A stretch of DNA of 46,932 bases, from the UHGV virus genome UHGV-0283311; one strand, 5' to 3'. The DNA comes from a virus. The notes under the pieces are model-generated. The model made no database searches. It was not told the origin of the DNA and was given only the letters and a program-made list of their open reading frames with translations. This document shows, piece after piece, positions 8,318 through 46,932 of the stretch. Made by a program: the position numbers and the translations under genes. Position 1 is the stretch's first letter. Each line of letters begins with the position of its first letter.

Positions 8318-8336
8318 TATAAATTTTCCTCTTAAA

Positions 8337-8354
8337 AGGGGCTATCAAGCCCCT
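8337..8354 (-). terminator. GC-rich hairpin between the two fiber genes
   Basis: aggggct-atca-agcccct; minus-strand transcript has hairpin followed by TTTTAAG. Confidence 0.35.
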
Positions 8355-8363
8355 GTAAAGAAA

Positions 8364-9551
8364 TTAAGCTGTTCTCTGCCATACATACAGTACAAAGGAT
8401 GGCTGCTCAATGTTGAAAGCTTGTCCACCACCAACACTATTAGTGTTCCCGCTATGCGTATGCTCAGAAGAAGAAACTGTTACAGTACCATTGTGTGTAT
8501 GTGAACCAATACCAACTGTGTGGCTGTGAGCACCAATACCAACCGTATGGTTGTGGTTACCAGTTGTGTTAGTGGTAACACTGAAAGAGTGGCTGTGAGC
8601 ACCAGCGACTTCACAGACAGCATCTGCTGAGTACCATGATTGGTCATTTCTTGAAGACCAAACCATTGCAGGTCTTTCAGATAAACCACCACCTGATTCA
8701 TAGGTCAATCTGTGGTTATGAGCACCAGCAGCACTTGTTGACCCACTGCCAACATGGTTGTGGTTACCAGTCGTGTTAGTGGTCTTTGTTCCATAGTCAA
8801 AAGAGTTGGTAGTCTTAGTTCCATAATCAAAAGCTGAAATTGACACAGTTGCATTATGAGTGTGACCACCACCACTAAGAGACACGGAGTGTGAATGTTG
8901 AGGCATGTTATTAACTGACAAAGTGACAGTTGAAGCACCAAATACAGAGCCTGCTGGTCTTGTATCAGAGTCATAACCAACCAATGCTCTACCTTTTGAA
9001 ACTAACTCCCAAGTTCCTCCACAAATTAAATACGTAGAAGGGTTTGCAGAGTTCATGGAAAGATGGATAGTACCTACTGGATAAGAAGCCTGAACAGCCT
9101 TGTACAAGTTATTTACTGCTCTTGCTGTAGCATACTTATCTGCATCTTCGTTATAAAGGTTAGATGTTGTCCAGTTCTGAACATTACTCAATCCTACCTG
9201 TGCCTTAGTTGTATTATGTGGGTTGCTCTTGTCCTGAATATGCTGTTGAACAAGATTATTAACCTCTTCTGAAGACATAATCTGTAGATTTGCTCTTGCC
9301 TGAGCTACATTAGTAACGTCTGATAAGTTATTTGCAGCAACTAACTGAAGAGCATTGATAACGTTATCTAAACCAATTTGTGTTTTAGTAACACCATGAG
9401 GGTTATTTCTTAGGCTTGAGTGTGGAGCAAGTAATTGCTCAAGAGTGCATCTCTTATCCTCAATACCTTGTTTAAGATGGAAGATATCACTAAGGTCAAT
9501 TGGTAAGGCTGCTTGAGGCAAGGCACTAATTTGAATTTCACCTACTGCCAT
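8364..9551 (-). CDS. tail fiber protein (second, shares His-rich tip)
   Basis: C-terminal [25 protein letters not shown] and SFDYGTKTTN repeats paralogous to 5930..8317. Confidence 0.7.
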   Translation of the reverse strand: MAVGEIQISALPQAALPIDLSDIFHLKQGIEDKRCTLEQLLAPHSSLRNNPHGVTKTQIGLDNVINALQLVAANNLSDVTNVAQARANLQIMSSEEVNNLVQQHIQDKSNPHNTTKAQVGLSNVQNWTTSNLYNEDADKYATARAVNNLYKAVQASYPVGTIHLSMNSANPSTYLICGGTWELVSKGRALVGYDSDTRPAGSVFGASTVTLSVNNMPQHSHSVSLSGGGHTHNATVSISAFDYGTKTTNSFDYGTKTTNTTGNHNHVGSGSTSAAGAHNHRLTYESGGGLSERPAMVWSSRNDQSWYSADAVCEVAGAHSHSFSVTTNTTGNHNHTVGIGAHSHTVGIGSHTHNGTVTVSSSEHTHSGNTNSVGGGQAFNIEQPSFVLYVWQRTA

Positions 9552-9553
9552 TA

Positions 9554-17572
<8,019 letters not shown>

Positions 17573-34100: not shown

Positions 34101-34177
34101 TGGAGGCGGGTGCAGGAGTCGAACCTGCCGATACCATGCTAATGAGACATGTGAGACGCCCTTTCTCTATACCCGCA
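34101..34177 (-). tRNA. tRNA(CAT): Met, fMet or Ile2
   Basis: loop CTCATTA, D-stem gaga/tctc, 1-72 mismatch; isotype unresolved. Confidence 0.6.
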
Positions 34178-34267
34178 ATTCTTAATGACCAGACCAAATA
34201 TCTTCTTTGTCCGATTAACTTTCAGATGAGTAGATTAAGTTTGCTGTAATTGGTCTTCTGTCAAAAC

Positions 34268-34345
34268 TGGCGTTCCAGAAGGGATTTGAACCCTCAGATA
34301 TCCACTTTGAAAGAGTGGTGACTTTACCGTTTTGTCTACTGGAAC
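34268..34345 (-). tRNA. tRNA-Glu(TTC)
   Basis: perfect acceptor gttccag/ctggaac, perfect anticodon stem ccact/agtgg, loop CTTTCAA. Confidence 0.8.
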
Positions 34346-34352
34346 ATTAATT

Positions 34353-34429
34353 TGGTCTCTGTTGGAGGACTTGAACCTCCGGCCTTACCGCCCCAAACGG
34401 AACGCTCTACCAAGCTGAGCTAAACAGAG
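34353..34429 (-). tRNA. tRNA-Pro(TGG)
   Basis: perfect acceptor and T-stem, D-arm gctc-agcttggta-gagc, loop TTTGGGG. Confidence 0.75.
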
Positions 34430-43512: not shown

Positions 43513-44061
43513 ATGGAAAAAGATAACTTAAAAGAAGTTGAAGGTAACTACCTAGTCCTTGATTGGAGTGATATTCGGGAAGCACTCTCCGAAGAAAATC
43601 TTGACTGGTTCGAACAAATTATCTTTGCAGTACGGCATAACAGAGAAGTTGAAAATGGTAAAGAGCCACTTGAAGGAATCTTTGTAGAAAGGTCTTATCC
43701 GTTCTATGAAGACACTTTGCAGAAAGTTAAGATGTACTTTAGACAGAAGAACCGTAAAGTAGTCACTATGGTATCTCTTGGTGGACAGAGTATGTCTGTG
43801 ATGGAAGATATCAATCCTAAGAGACCGAGTAAAGGTGTTTGTATAAAAATCACAGGTCATGAAGAGTATATCTCAGCAAGTGATTTTAGTGTATTCTGTA
43901 ATGGTTCTGCTGTCTTTAATGGGTTTCACTATGATATCCGAGTGTATCCAATCAAGGGAGATGATATCATGATGCAGGTATTTGATAACAACAACGGATT
44001 CACTCATTTTTATCAGACAACCAAGTCATCATTAAAAACAGTTCTGGAAACACTGATTTAA
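43513..44061 (+). CDS. hypothetical protein
   Basis: track start 43468 is TTG; first ATG at 43513 lies 14 nt after upstream stop. Confidence 0.5.
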   Translation: MEKDNLKEVEGNYLVLDWSDIREALSEENLDWFEQIIFAVRHNREVENGKEPLEGIFVERSYPFYEDTLQKVKMYFRQKNRKVVTMVSLGGQSMSVMEDINPKRPSKGVCIKITGHEEYISASDFSVFCNGSAVFNGFHYDIRVYPIKGDDIMMQVFDNNNGFTHFYQTTKSSLKTVLETLI

Positions 44062-44072
44062 AATATCTTAAT

Positions 44073-44098
44073 AGCCTCCTTAATTGGGGGCTTTTTAT
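44073..44098 (+). terminator. Rho-independent terminator
   Basis: agcctcc-ttaatt-gggggct followed by ttttta. Confidence 0.6.
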
Positions 44099-44194
44099 TG
44101 AGTAAAATTTACGAAATTTATATTTTTTATAAAATTTTATCGGTTGTCCCAACCTCTGGGTCACCATCATATGTGAACAAAATATCTATCCTTC

Positions 44195-45260
44195 TTAACA
44201 ACCTTTTTAATCTTACTCTCTATATAGTTATATAGTACTATATAGTATCTTAGTAACTACCTAGTGGTCTTAATAGCCCCTCTGTATAATCCTTCTAACA
44301 AGCCCTCTAACAAGCCTTCTTAACAACCTATACAATCACCTTAACCATCTCTCTATACACTCTTAGAAGCTCCTATACACCTCTTAATCTCTATGTCAGC
44401 TATGACACTCTCTATAGGTGTTCACTAGGTGCTACTAAGCCTCTATATAGACTGTTTTAACAAACTTAACAGGAATATCTTTACAGGCCTTATCTCACAA
44501 GGTCTAACACGGTACTAACAAGGTATCTTATAAGCCTGTTATTACCTGTATTTTAGAAAGACTGTATAGGTAATTATTCAGATTTTTAAAATTTTTATAA
44601 AATAGGACTATCAAGTCATTTTTTAGGGTCTTTGAAGGAACTGAAAAATATCTGTAGAAGATGTATATCTGCTTGGTAGCCCTTAACAGCTCCCTTACAA
44701 GTACTTTGCAAAATTTTAAAATATCCTTAACAATCTCTTAACAGTTACTACATCTTCTTAACATCTCTTCAAAGGTCTTAACAGATTCTTAACAGAACTA
44801 ACAAGAGCGTAACAGTTTTCTAACAAGTGCTGAATAGGCTTTACAGAATCTTAACAGATGACTAACAAGAGCTAACAAGTTAATTTTTAAGAGTTATTTT
44901 GTTAAGATAATTAACAAGTTTCTAACAAGTGTTTAATCTTTTTAACAATCTATTAACATGGTCACTACTCTTTCCTTATCGTTCCCTTTCCTTTCTTAGT
45001 GATTCTTTAAACATACCTCTTAAAAGCTCTCTATAGCCCCTTGTAAGCTCTTTTAAACCTCTTCCTAGTAATTACACCCCAACTGTACAGATACCTCTTT
45101 ATAGGGCTTTACAGGGGCTTTAAAGGCTATGTCAAAGGTTCTTACAAGGCTTTTACGTGGTTTTAACAGAGATTTAACAAGGGGCTAACAAGTTGCTAAC
45201 AAGTGCCTTAAAAGCATAACTATGTAGGGATTGTTAAGAAATTGTTAAGAAAATGTTAAG
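44195..45260. repeat. Non-coding region with about 30 copies of TAACA(A/G) in both orientations (iteron-like array)
   Basis: cttaacag, ctaacaag and tgttaag recur at 10-12-bp spacing (e.g. 44777-44830); AT-rich stretches at 44100-44160 and 44580-44610; no ORF of 60 aa or more. Confidence 0.6.
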
Positions 45261-45270
45261 GGGGCTAGCA

Positions 45271-45313
45271 TTTACGTAACTTTATAGCCCCTTTTACGTA
45301 ACTTTAAAGCCCC
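45271..45313. repeat. tandem direct repeat of 21 bp
   Basis: tttacgtaactttatagcccc then tttacgtaactttaaagcccc. Confidence 0.6.
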
Positions 45314-45720
45314 TATAACATACTTTTTAGTGACTATCAAGGGGTTGTTTAGTTATTCACAAGAATACTAATGAGATGATAAAGCTTACACCCTTATAAG
45401 ATTCTTTTAAGTCTCTGGGAAGCTCTAGGAAGGGCTTTTTAGGGTGAGTTAATGCAACCCCTTAAGTTAGGTTGATAAGGCTGTTATAGGGCGTTATAGA
45501 GCGTTTAAGGGGTTGCCCTTCCCTTTCGGGTTATGGGCTTATATTTAAGTTGATTTGATAAGAGGTTATAGAGTAGACTATAGAGTTATTGCTTTTAAGG
45601 TCTGATAAGATTCTGGAAAGGTGAGGGAAAGGGATTGTATAAGGATTCGATAGACGTAAAAAAGCCCCTTTAAATAGGGGCTGTTAGGGTATCTGGGGCT
45701 AAATAGCCCCGCTGCGTCGA

Positions 45721-45969
45721 TTAGTTATAATCTTGTTTGTTGTAGTACAGGGAGACGATTTTTTCTCCCCAATAGTGATAAGTATAACCATCCTTGAGAA
45801 CTTCTTGTTTTGTTTCCTCCCAGAACTCATCCGAAGGATTATAGTCTTTGATGGTCTGACTGATAAGACATTTCACCATTTCAAAGGCGTTATCAGTGCC
45901 TGCAATGTCAAATTTAACATCCAGAGAGGAAAAACCGAACTCGTTAACAGTAGCGCGGATAGTTGCCAT
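45721..45969 (-). CDS. hypothetical small protein
   Basis: 82-aa ORF; AGGAG RBS within the upstream conserved element. Confidence 0.5.
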   Translation of the reverse strand: MATIRATVNEFGFSSLDVKFDIAGTDNAFEMVKCLISQTIKDYNPSDEFWEETKQEVLKDGYTYHYWGEKIVSLYYNKQDYN

Positions 45970-45977
45970 TTTTGAAT

Positions 45978-46035
45978 CTCCTAGTTTAAGGGTTTTATTT
46001 AGTGGGGAGGTTATCGCCTCCCGTTGATTAGTAAT
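45978..46035 (-). promoter_or_regulatory. conserved intergenic element copy 1 (GC hairpin plus RBS)
   Basis: ctcctagtttaagggttttatttagtggggagg-ttatcg-cctcccgttgatt matches copies at 46308 and 46905. Confidence 0.5.
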
Positions 46036-46299
46036 TTACTGCATATTGGCGTATGTTGCAAGCCTTTTTTCGTTGTATTTTGTAAGAATCTCACAAGATA
46101 CAACATCATACTTTGTAACAGCGTTGCCTTTATCGAGGTCAAAAAAGCCAAACGCTTTACCATCTTTGAATCCGACAACTTCGTAAGATTCTTTGATGAT
46201 TTCACCATTGAACAAATCACTTTCGATACGGTGAAATAATGCTACATCTTCTTTGTCGGTTGCAATTTGTAAAAGTGTGGTTAATTCTACGTTTTCCAT
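46036..46299 (-). CDS. hypothetical small protein
   Basis: 87-aa ORF preceded by conserved element copy 2. Confidence 0.5.
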   Translation of the reverse strand: MENVELTTLLQIATDKEDVALFHRIESDLFNGEIIKESYEVVGFKDGKAFGFFDLDKGNAVTKYDVVSCEILTKYNEKRLATYANMQ

Positions 46300-46307
46300 C
46301 TTGATAA

Positions 46308-46365
46308 CTCCAGTTTAGGACTTTATTTAGTGGGGAAGGTCATTCCCTCCCCGTTGATTGACAAT
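46308..46365 (-). promoter_or_regulatory. conserved intergenic element copy 2
   Basis: ctccagtttaggactttatttagtggggaagg-tcatt-ccctccccgttgattgaca. Confidence 0.5.
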
Positions 46366-46896
46366 TTACAGACTTTTAAGTGTCTCGTCAATATCTTTTT
46401 CAATGTCTTTTAAAGTTTTTTCTAAGTTCTTGATATTGAAGGATAAACCTTCACCGAGAGTCTTAGAGTAACCACTAGGACGTAAATTATACAGTTTAAT
46501 TTCTTCCACTTTAAAGAGACTAACTAACTCACCGTTTACATCATAAGCCATTGAAACAGTATTTGCAGGTGCATTGTAAAACTTGTTTAGTGACTTGATA
46601 GAACGTTCATAAGCCATTTTATAACCGTTTAAAAGGTTTTTAACGTGGTTGTGAACGTTTTTACACTCATCTAGATAAATCTCTAAGAATAACGGTAATA
46701 ATTCCGCTACAGCTTGCATAAAGTGAGAGACTACAACGGTTGAGACATTACGACGATGAACGTAATAAGCCCCGTTTTCTGATTTGGTGATTGTTGCGAA
46801 ATGTACCCCATTACAACGAAATTCGTATGTATCTTTTACAGGCTTAGACATTACAGCATTTGAACGAATGAAGTTGATAGCTTGAAATTTGTTCAT
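46366..46896 (-). CDS. hypothetical protein
   Basis: 176-aa ORF preceded by conserved element copy 3. Confidence 0.5.
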   Translation of the reverse strand: MNKFQAINFIRSNAVMSKPVKDTYEFRCNGVHFATITKSENGAYYVHRRNVSTVVVSHFMQAVAELLPLFLEIYLDECKNVHNHVKNLLNGYKMAYERSIKSLNKFYNAPANTVSMAYDVNGELVSLFKVEEIKLYNLRPSGYSKTLGEGLSFNIKNLEKTLKDIEKDIDETLKSL

Positions 46897-46904
46897 TTTA
46901 GAAT

Positions 46905-46932
46905 CTCCAGTTTAGGACTTTATTTAGTGGGG
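46905..46932 (-). promoter_or_regulatory. conserved intergenic element copy 3 (truncated by window end)
   Basis: ctccagtttaggactttatttagtgggg is identical to the first 28 nt of copy 2. Confidence 0.45.

Follow-up and report, generated by a model that had tools for sequence, protein, structure and literature searches.

Background

The closest described counterparts of the element treated here are the PeSLs, promoter/stem-loop units of T4-type phages. By definition, a PeSL begins in an AT-rich stretch that holds the stop codon of the preceding gene and ends with a Shine-Dalgarno (SD) sequence and a start codon; between them it has a promoter of the sigma-70 type and a polyG/polyC stem-loop with G-T pairs, which takes one of five positions relative to the promoter (PMC2839356). 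The class is further characterised by demonstrated promoter and terminator activity and by excised mini-circles, as in RB49/phi1. PeSLs are repeated in plastic genome regions before orphan genes, where they mediate modular shuffling (Arbiol et al. 2010, PMC2839356), and the description has been extended to further T4-like phages (Comeau et al. 2014, PMC4122927). The phages named as carriers are RB49/phi1, PST/T4 and nt-1/KVP40; the cassettes of RB49 were read directly for the present comparison (locus L009). Here we describe a repeated element in the virus genome UHGV-0283311, a stretch of 46,932 nucleotides referred to below as the window, where it precedes three consecutive small genes on the minus strand. 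Each copy is probably the downstream part of an early-gene expression cassette of about 100 bp, made of a host sigma-70 promoter and a leader, in a Felix O1-like phage.

The window belongs to Felixounavirus, a group of Felix O1-like myoviruses. A sequence search with its last 2.9 kb matched 258 phage records, the best matches being the Felixounavirus genomes KhF2 (95.7% identity) and AYO145A (about 90%), and VpaE1_ev035 is 100% identical to a 111-nt probe around one copy of the element. The paper describing Felix O1 lists direct repeats of 57 bp and 39 bp without calling them promoters, and states that the organisation and timing of transcription in this much-used group of Salmonella and Escherichia coli phages 'is not known' (PMC3185647); these direct repeats are the cassettes discussed here. 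The paper on UAB_Phi87 reports 42 BPROM promoters without further detail, and a 14-bp repeat ahead of the ribosome-binding site (RBS) is annotated in the Mordin record. Our literature search found no paper linking PeSLs to Felix O1-like phages.

A repeated cassette before three small early genes

The element is present as two full copies (A and B) and a third (C) that ends at the window edge, all on the minus strand, each placed between the stop codon of one open reading frame (ORF) and the ATG of the next. Copy A (46365..46300) reads TAA-ATTGTCAATC-AAC-GGGGAGGG-AATGA-CCTTCCCC-ACTAAATAAAGT-CCTAAACTGGAG-TTATCAAG-ATG, and copy B (46035..45970) reads TAA-ATTACTAATC-AAC-GGGAGG-CGATAA-CCTCCC-CACTAAATAAAAC-CCTTAAACTAGGAG-ATTCAAAA-ATG. 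For copy C (46932..46897; CCCCACTAAATAAAGTCCTAAACTGGAGATTCTAAA-ATG), the window ends within the 3' arm of a hairpin, and what is left comprises that arm, the AU-rich spacer, the RBS module and the final spacer before an ATG at 46896..46894. The three genes served by these copies (46896..45721, minus strand) encode proteins of 176, 87 and 82 amino acids (aa). The 176-aa ORF (46896..46366) lies after copy C and before copy A, the 87-aa ORF (46299..46036) after copy A and before copy B, and the 82-aa ORF (45969..45721) after copy B. They are the final members of a long array of small early genes, and their proteins fall into phage-only families, all of unknown function, in Pfam and PHROGs.

The sequence-only reading had noticed a conserved element of about 58 bp in front of each of these genes, and its repetition is indeed far beyond chance. 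The 15-mer TTTATTTAGTGGGGA has two exact occurrences in the window, both in these copies, and allowing up to three mismatches gives five matches, against a mean of 2.0 in shuffled sequence and a maximum that never reached five. The 12-mer CCACTAAATAAA occurs exactly three times, all inside 940 bp. A covariance model of the hairpin region, run with filters off over the 46.9-kb window, returned the two full copies only (E = 1.2e-8 and 0.029; 55.4 bits for copy A and 21 bits for copy B). The search for more copies suggested by the sequence-only reading gave many in the arrays of related phages, and in the window itself only those already known. The 51 meaningful hits of the model are confined to the gene strand of the early small-gene array, with none elsewhere in the window. 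An Rfam scan of 44000-46932 found nothing relevant, its only match in the rest of this region being a chance-level Phe-leader (E = 0.9).

A predicted sigma-70 promoter upstream of the leader

Both full copies are preceded by a pair of hexamers of the sigma-70 type on the minus strand. For copy A, the -35 hexamer TTGACG (46386..46391) falls in the last codons (I-D-E) of the 176-aa gene, with the A-tract GAAAAAG just upstream, and a 17-nt spacer leads to the -10 hexamer TAAATT (46363..46368), whose TAA (46368..46366) is the stop codon of the same gene. Copy B has the same arrangement: TTGCAA (46056..46061) in the last codons of the 87-aa gene, with the A-tract GAAAAAAG upstream, then a 17-nt spacer and TAAATT (46033..46038), of which the TAA (46038..46036) ends the 87-aa gene. 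When the sigma-70 start-position rule is applied, transcription is predicted to start at 46355 for copy A, on the A of AACGGGG that is the eighth nucleotide past the -10 hexamer (the preceding C being the alternative), and at 46025 for copy B. The counterpart of copy C in related phages is preceded by TTGCAA-17-TAAATT, for example before the gene at 13500 of the VpaE1_ev035 locus.

The array loci of KhF2 (L001), AYO145A (L002), VpaE1_ev035 (L003), FO1a (L004), phiSUSP1 (L005), Sf15 (L006), Mordin (L007) and finno (L008) were compared, and the register of the hexamers was tested over nine sequences from three genera by anchoring on the leader alone and leaving the upstream sequence unconstrained. 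In 47 of the 51 unique leader anchors, TAnnnT stands exactly 7 nt before AAC; the remaining four are false anchors. The -10 variants among the 47 are TAAATT (26), TAAAGT (12), TAATAT (5) and others, and in every case TTGACA, TTGCAA, TTGACG, TTGACT, TAGACA or TTGATT is found exactly 17 nt further upstream. All seven hairpin-type cassettes of VpaE1_ev035 follow the pattern of a -35-like hexamer, 17 nt, a -10 hexamer, 7 nt and AACGG. An A-tract occupies positions -41 to -45, even inside coding sequence. In this window, two such hexamers would fall into a single set register by chance with a probability of 0.0014.

One and the same leader is joined to at least four promoter sequences with little in common beyond the hexamers, and all copies share conserved sequence from the predicted start site onward. 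Where intergenic gaps are long, the leader (ATC-AACGGGG) directly follows an explicit promoter, such as TTGACA-17-TAAATT-ACACATC or TTGACT-17-TAGTAT-TTGCATC. Where the gap is short (66 nt, as in the two full copies of the window), the TAA of the -10 hexamer doubles as the upstream stop codon and the -35 hexamer lies inside the upstream coding sequence. Across cassettes, the stop codon is found in the -10 hexamer (TAAATT), in the -35 hexamer (TGA of TTGACA, TAG of TAGACA) or just upstream. The TTGACG of copy A is invariant in the orthologues of Suspvirus and Mooglevirus despite a different spacer sequence, and the TTGCAA of copy B is also kept in these two genera. The fixed register is strong sequence-level evidence that these are host sigma-70 promoters, whose activity is predicted.

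Several points weigh against this assignment. The -10 hexamer TAAATT and the -35 hexamer TTGCAA each match only four of the six consensus positions. A generic promoter scan picks up the promoter of copy A, but it returns 12 sites against 8.9 in shuffled sequence and is undiscriminating in such AT-rich DNA, so that it is the constancy of the register from copy to copy that carries the argument. These copies are related by descent and gene conversion, and hence are not independent observations. Finally, a literature search gave no mapped transcript 5' ends and no transcriptome for any Felix O1-like phage; promoter activity and the position of the hairpin at +4 are therefore predictions.

The polymerase that reads the cassettes might instead be encoded or modified by the phage, as the sequence-only reading had allowed in suggesting a phage-specific promoter. 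The motif CCTCCCCACTAAATAAAG, which is conserved before many genes, would then act as a promoter of the T3/T7 type, and CCCCACTAAAT loosely resembles the T3 promoter core CCCTCACTAAAG. Promoters for single-subunit phage polymerases (T7, T3, SP6) comprise about 20 conserved bp around the start site and are read by an enzyme that the phage itself encodes. However, Felix O1 lacks genes for an RNA polymerase and for any known specificity factor, and ORFs 13, 16, 20, 21 and 22 of its array peak 5 min post infection by reverse transcription PCR (PMC3185647, Table 3), a timing consistent with the host polymerase. Moreover, ACTAAATAAAG is replaced by CAACAAT in Suspvirus and Mooglevirus while the sigma-70 hexamers keep their register. 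A phage-specific promoter is thus very improbable. The 58 bp first delimited do not themselves form a promoter, and the host-type promoter lies just outside them; on the sequence comparisons, they represent the downstream half of a unit of roughly 100 bp, namely the transcribed leader, or 5' untranslated region (5'UTR), of the predicted promoter. As for other promoter classes, a T4 MotA-box middle promoter in the copies with GCTTGCAA was ruled out, as the distance to the -10 hexamer is 18 nt there and about 12 nt for MotA.

Leader hairpin and ribosome-binding module

With a start 7 to 8 nt past the -10 hexamer, both full copies would give a 5'UTR of 56 nt. The hairpin of copy A (46332..46352) is GGGGAGGG-AATGA-CCTTCCCC, with 8 bp including one G-U pair and a 5-nt loop, at about +4; that of copy B (46022..46005) is GGGAGG-CGATAA-CCTCCC. 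The whole leader folds with a minimum free energy of -19.7 kcal/mol (z = -2.86) for copy A and -13.6 kcal/mol (z = -3.19) for copy B. In both, the stem begins 10 nt past the -10 hexamer, about +4 of the predicted transcript, which leaves 3 to 4 unpaired nucleotides before it. In the related arrays, the hairpin starts at +4 in every genuine leader, or at +5 in a few that are initiated with AGAC or AACT. Stems of 4 to 9 bp occur in the variants GGGGAGGG/CCTTCCCC, GGGAGG/CCTCCC, GGGGC/GCCCC, GGGC/GCCC, GGGA/TCCC and GGGGAG/CTCCCC, and the loops vary freely in sequence and length between copies. Free energies of the hairpins range from -5 to -16 kcal/mol, and leader folds reach z = -1.7 to -3.6 against shuffled sequences. 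The first cassette of the array keeps its hairpin with no gene directly upstream.

The hairpin is followed in copy A by an unstructured AU-rich spacer, ACTAAATAAAGT (46320..46331), which contains TAA in two frames, and by the RBS module CCTAAACTGGAG with the 8-nt spacer TTATCAAG (46300..46319) before the ATG at 46299..46297. In copy B, the AU-rich spacer CACTAAATAAAAC, the RBS module CCTTAAACTAGGAG and an 8-nt spacer span 45970..46004, before the ATG at 45969..45967. The SD sequence noted by the sequence-only reading is confirmed: copy B has AGGAG, copies A and C have GGAG, and the distance to the ATG is 8 nt throughout. The RBS module fronts nearly every gene of the early array in the nine sequences. 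It exists as two alleles, UCC[UAAACU]GGA-G and CCU[UAAACU]AGG-AG (window 46308-46319 and 45978-45991, and all related loci), in which the T and A insertions are always linked and a 3-bp stem around the same hexaloop is retained; this linkage reflects either a weak structure holding the SD sequence or simple co-conversion. Stop codons were also seen by eye in all three frames between the -10 hexamer and the RBS (46320-46368, minus strand), namely in TAAATT (TAA), in the loop AATGA (TGA) and in ACTAAATAAAG (TAA twice), so that an ORF brought in upstream by recombination would end ahead of the next start.

The structural evidence for the hairpin has its own weak points. Compensatory changes had been claimed for the stem, and copy B does have a stem shortened on both arms, but over 33 distinct copies covariation is no better than in shuffled controls: 93.8% of the cells pair and there is one double change only. 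Shuffled partners pair equally well because the arms are runs of G and runs of C. Covariation is thus not demonstrable, and the structural claim rests on a stable hairpin persisting at a fixed position. Alignment of 27 unique leaders with MAFFT, followed by RNAalifold, returned the tiny RBS stem as its only result; the hairpin was left unaligned because stem lengths differ. In addition, some orthologous cassettes have the promoter and the RBS without the hairpin (phiSUSP1 at 8499, Sf15 at 2650). The hairpin is thus dispensable for expression and would be modulating rather than enabling.

The first reading had also held that no U-run follows the hairpin on either strand, and this stands: the stem continues into ACTAAATA on the minus strand and into GTTGATTG on the plus strand, neither of which is a U-tract, and a terminator scan calls neither. 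The records of KhF1, KhF2 and KhF3 nevertheless present the hairpins as plus-strand rho-independent terminators. In favour of this annotation, the label 'Rho-independent terminator' stands on equivalent plus-strand hairpins in the KhF2 record, and the plus-strand stem is followed by GTTGATTG, with 4 T in 8. However, this tail fails the usual U-tract criterion, such terminators would end transcripts antisense to the early genes, and the convergent plus-strand operon already has a proper terminator at 44073-44092, 1.6 kb away. The strict minus-strand register with promoter, RBS and ATG would also be left unexplained. Plus-strand termination is therefore scarcely credible. In the KhF2 record (KT184314), the hairpins annotated on the opposite strand are at 8331-8351, 9490-9510, 11048-11068, 11913-11933 and 14562-14582, and these labels are probably mis-annotations. 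The view of the element as a repeated gene-start cassette is upheld, and the hairpin is not a canonical terminator.

A second cassette type and gene shuffling

A second cassette type alternates with that of the window in the related arrays, in the part that corresponds to DNA past the window end, for example at 8835-8924, 9219-9303 and 11078-11163 of the VpaE1_ev035 locus, with equivalents in the seven other loci compared. It consists of TTTACA-17-TAnnnT with a hairpin of 8 to 9 bp, GGGGCTTA-N13-TAAGCCCC, lying over the spacer and the -10 hexamer; a variant of the hairpin, GGGGTTATC/GATAGCCCC, contains a G-U pair. The sequence continues with AGATAAAGAGCTTTACC and then with the same RBS module as in the type of the window. 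Hairpin and flanks together make an imperfect palindrome of about 60 nt (z = -4.3).

Gene content and order of the array differ between phages in units of a cassette plus a gene. FO1a lacks exactly the 87-aa gene and has at this place one hybrid cassette (9035-9102, compared with 46395..45967 of the window), in which the promoter of copy A, in the end of the 176-aa gene, is joined to the leader of copy B. Judged from its sequence, this hybrid is the footprint of a recombination event between adjacent cassettes.

Proposed role of the hairpin

Right after infection, host sigma-70 polymerase would bind the A-tract, the -35 hexamer (TTGACG or TTGCAA), the 17-bp spacer and the -10 hexamer TAAATT of each cassette. 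The promoter would overlap the end of the preceding gene, the -10 hexamer supplying the TAA stop codon of that gene. Transcription would begin 7 to 8 nt past the -10 hexamer, at (C)AACGGGG, and yield a 56-nt leader in which the hairpin is followed by an unstructured AU-rich stretch, a strong SD sequence (GGAG or AGGAG), 8 nt and the ATG. The hairpin may protect the early mRNA from 5'-end-dependent decay by RNase E and keep the RBS region unpaired whatever sequence lies upstream. It may also dampen read-through from upstream cassettes, or shield the 3' ends of upstream message segments. Finally, the cassettes, being repeats, would offer stretches of homology through which related phages gain, lose and exchange small early genes.

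Our preferred reading of the hairpin is that of a 5'-terminal stabiliser and insulator. In Escherichia coli, RNA is stabilised by a stem-loop that leaves no more than 2 to 4 unpaired 5' nucleotides (PMC2948425, citing Bouvet & Belasco 1992 and Emory et al. 1992), and the 3 to 4 unpaired nucleotides predicted here fit this rule. The fixed distance from start to hairpin, the variable stem and loop, and the presence of the hairpin in the first cassette likewise fit a role at the 5' end. The architecture of promoter, leader and RBS and its conservation are established at the level of sequence, while activity, the exact start and the job of the hairpin are inferred.

Alternatively, with the promoter assignment unchanged, the hairpin might mainly attenuate or terminate transcription from upstream cassettes and so insulate each small gene transcriptionally, a function proposed for the stem-loops of PeSLs. 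A result from the PeSLs speaks for this and against a stabiliser: in RB49/phi1, the stem-loop of PeSL211/210, inserted between lacZ and a promoter, lowered expression to about the same extent as the terminator rrnB T1 (PMC2839356). The hairpin of the second cassette type, which folds stably with its flanks as given above (z = -4.3), lies over the spacer and the -10 hexamer and hence is transcribed by read-through only. Overlapping terminator-promoter units are, in addition, reportedly common in bacteria (preprint 10.64898/2026.08.19.745784). However, the gene strand has no U-tract behind the stem, which the terminator scan leaves uncalled. The hairpin of the window type lies downstream of the predicted start, where an efficient terminator would abort the cassette's own transcripts, and the fixed distance of 3 to 4 nt between start and hairpin in all copies would be needless for a pure read-through terminator. 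Moreover, the hairpin is present in the first cassette, about 450 nt downstream of a canonical terminator. Attenuation as the main function is thus rather unlikely.

The sequence-only reading had further suggested a processing site or a translational operator; neither found positive support. In the first case, a host or phage ribonuclease would cleave the polycistronic early RNA beside the hairpin; in the second, binding of a phage protein to the conserved leader or RBS would shut off early translation. The AU-rich single strand beside the stable hairpin (ACUAAAUAAAGU) does resemble the typical context of an RNase E substrate, and the RBS module CCUAAACUGGAG is conserved far beyond the needs of a bare SD sequence, its two alleles keeping the 3-bp stem round the hexaloop. 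In T4, post-transcriptional control acts at GGAG sites via the RegB nuclease. A review describes control of T4 early mRNAs through mRNA decay and inhibited initiation of translation (PMC3014915). However, an RNase III site needs about two helical turns and the stems here have 4 to 9 bp, and the free variation of loop sequence and length argues against specific binding of a protein to the hairpin. In the RBS module, 6 nt separate the two linked indels, which gene conversion could simply have moved together. The analysis identified no candidate nuclease or repressor, and Rfam gave no match. We regard this explanation, in either form, as improbable.

Two specific candidates were rejected on related grounds. 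A protein-binding hairpin like lambda nut/boxB was ruled out, as the loops are too variable, and an RNase III site was ruled out by the short stems.

Significance of the cassettes

Host-type early promoters with a common leader would provide a testable map of about 13 to 17 early transcription starts per genome. The cassette reading would also explain the cassette-sized variation of small host-takeover genes between isolates. In several GenBank records, the hairpins carry terminator labels, placed on the wrong strand. For applications, the cassette is a compact, portable and apparently strong promoter-leader-RBS unit for E. coli and Salmonella, and the cassettes may mark safe insertion points for the engineering of therapeutic Felix O1-like phages. 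The PeSL idea of promoter/stem-loop linkers for modular shuffling would be extended beyond T4-type phages, a question that the authors of the PeSL work left open.

Other features of the window

The terminator scan found a canonical rho-independent terminator, AGCCCCTATTTAAAGGGGCT followed by TTTTTT, at 45663..45682 on the minus strand, where it closes the early gene array; it corresponds to t23 of Felix O1 (PMC3185647, Table 2). Between this terminator and the last gene lies another hairpin, GGGGCT-ATTT-AGCCCC followed by AGATACC (45695-45710, minus strand). Its sequence is similar to the 3' half of a cassette of the second type (…AGCCCCAGATA…), of which it may be a relic.

Elsewhere, the window carries a cluster of 25 tRNAs (29275-34429, minus strand), typical for Felix O1-like phages, and a repeat of about 90 nt (…TAAGAGGGTCTTTTAATGAGGTTT… followed by GGT-rich runs) that occurs four times at 7-1640 on the plus strand, with spacings of 1269, 137 and 138 nt. 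Octamers of the form YTAACARR (CTAACAAG, TTAACAGA and similar) are clustered: 19 of the 44 in the window fall within 44295-45203 (plus strand), nearly all on one strand. The cluster lies inside a gene-free gap of 1.6 kb (44093-45662) flanked by two convergent terminators, and the finno record annotates repeat_region features at this stretch. It is an iteron-like array, possibly serving as an origin of replication or as binding sites for a regulator.

Comparison with known systems

The hairpins share with intrinsic terminators an intergenic GC-rich stem of 6 to 8 bp and a short loop, but the cassettes have no U-run on either strand, whereas the genuine terminator at 45682..45663 has its T-run. 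They also recall the promoter-coupled terminators described in the preprint of Fletcher et al. (2026, 10.64898/2026.08.19.745784), in which a short intergenic stretch ends one unit and starts the next and a stem-loop overlaps a promoter. Those terminators, however, are canonical, their mapped 3' ends lie some 10 bp ahead of the start, and their DNA aids the promoter; here there is no T-tract, and the hairpin of the window type comes after the start.

A further parallel is offered by the 5'-terminal stabilisers of E. coli, such as the ompA 5'UTR and engineered RNA I, in which the sequence of the hairpin matters little and an accessible, efficient RBS region follows (PMC2948425). The cassettes differ from the ompA type in that their 5' end is predicted, and in that the hairpin would also stand in the 3'UTR of read-through transcripts, where a second role is possible. 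The leader of T7 gene 10 is built in a similar way, with a stem-loop at the 5' end, then an AU-rich enhancer and a strong SD sequence.

Like PeSLs, the cassettes have a predicted -35/N17/-10 pair of the sigma-70 type with an AT-rich stretch upstream (TTGACG-17-TAAATT for copy A and TTGCAA-17-TAAATT for copy B). The preceding gene has its stop codon at or within the cassette, a G-run and a C-run pair into a stable stem-loop in which G-T pairs occur, and the unit closes with a conserved SD sequence and start codon. Small orphan early genes are preceded by dozens of nearly identical copies, and cassettes form the borders of indels between related phages. The second cassette type of the Felix O1-like phages, with its hairpin over the spacer and the -10 hexamer, is laid out exactly like many RB49 PeSLs. 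The differences are those of lineage, which is Ounavirinae here and Straboviridae for the PeSL phages, and of the position of the stem-loop in the window type: at +4 to +24, after the predicted start, it falls outside the five PeSL classes, and none of the RB49 cassettes that were read has it there. A blastn search with the cassette gave 247 records, compared with 258 for the 2.9-kb region, and those with taxonomy among the matches listed were all Ounavirinae.

At the level of sequence, a blastn-short search against 50 kb of PeSL-rich RB49 DNA found only 15 to 19 nt around GGAGAATCAAAAATG to be alike, with no other homology. RB49 PeSLs (118245-118263 and 121672-121688) and cassettes of the Felix O1 type have almost the same translation-initiation region, CTGGAGA(A/T)TCAAAAATG, which reflects either convergence on an optimal start region for E. 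coli or exchange between phage families. Under a broader proposal, the cassettes would not be passive promoters only but would drive an integron-like shuffling of genes in a second myovirus lineage, unrelated to the T4-type phages. Units of a cassette and an orphan gene would leave as mini-circles and be exchanged, perhaps even between Felix O1-like and RB49-like coliphages, and the stem-loop, instead of being a generic structure, would be recognised by a dedicated recombination or RNA-control factor. The common CTGGAGA(A/T)TCAAAAATG would then be a trace of exchange, but we consider such a system doubtful. By their architecture, the cassettes of the window are PeSL-like early-gene units in an unrelated myovirus subfamily, of a kind already described in T4-like phages and with a positional variant of the stem-loop.

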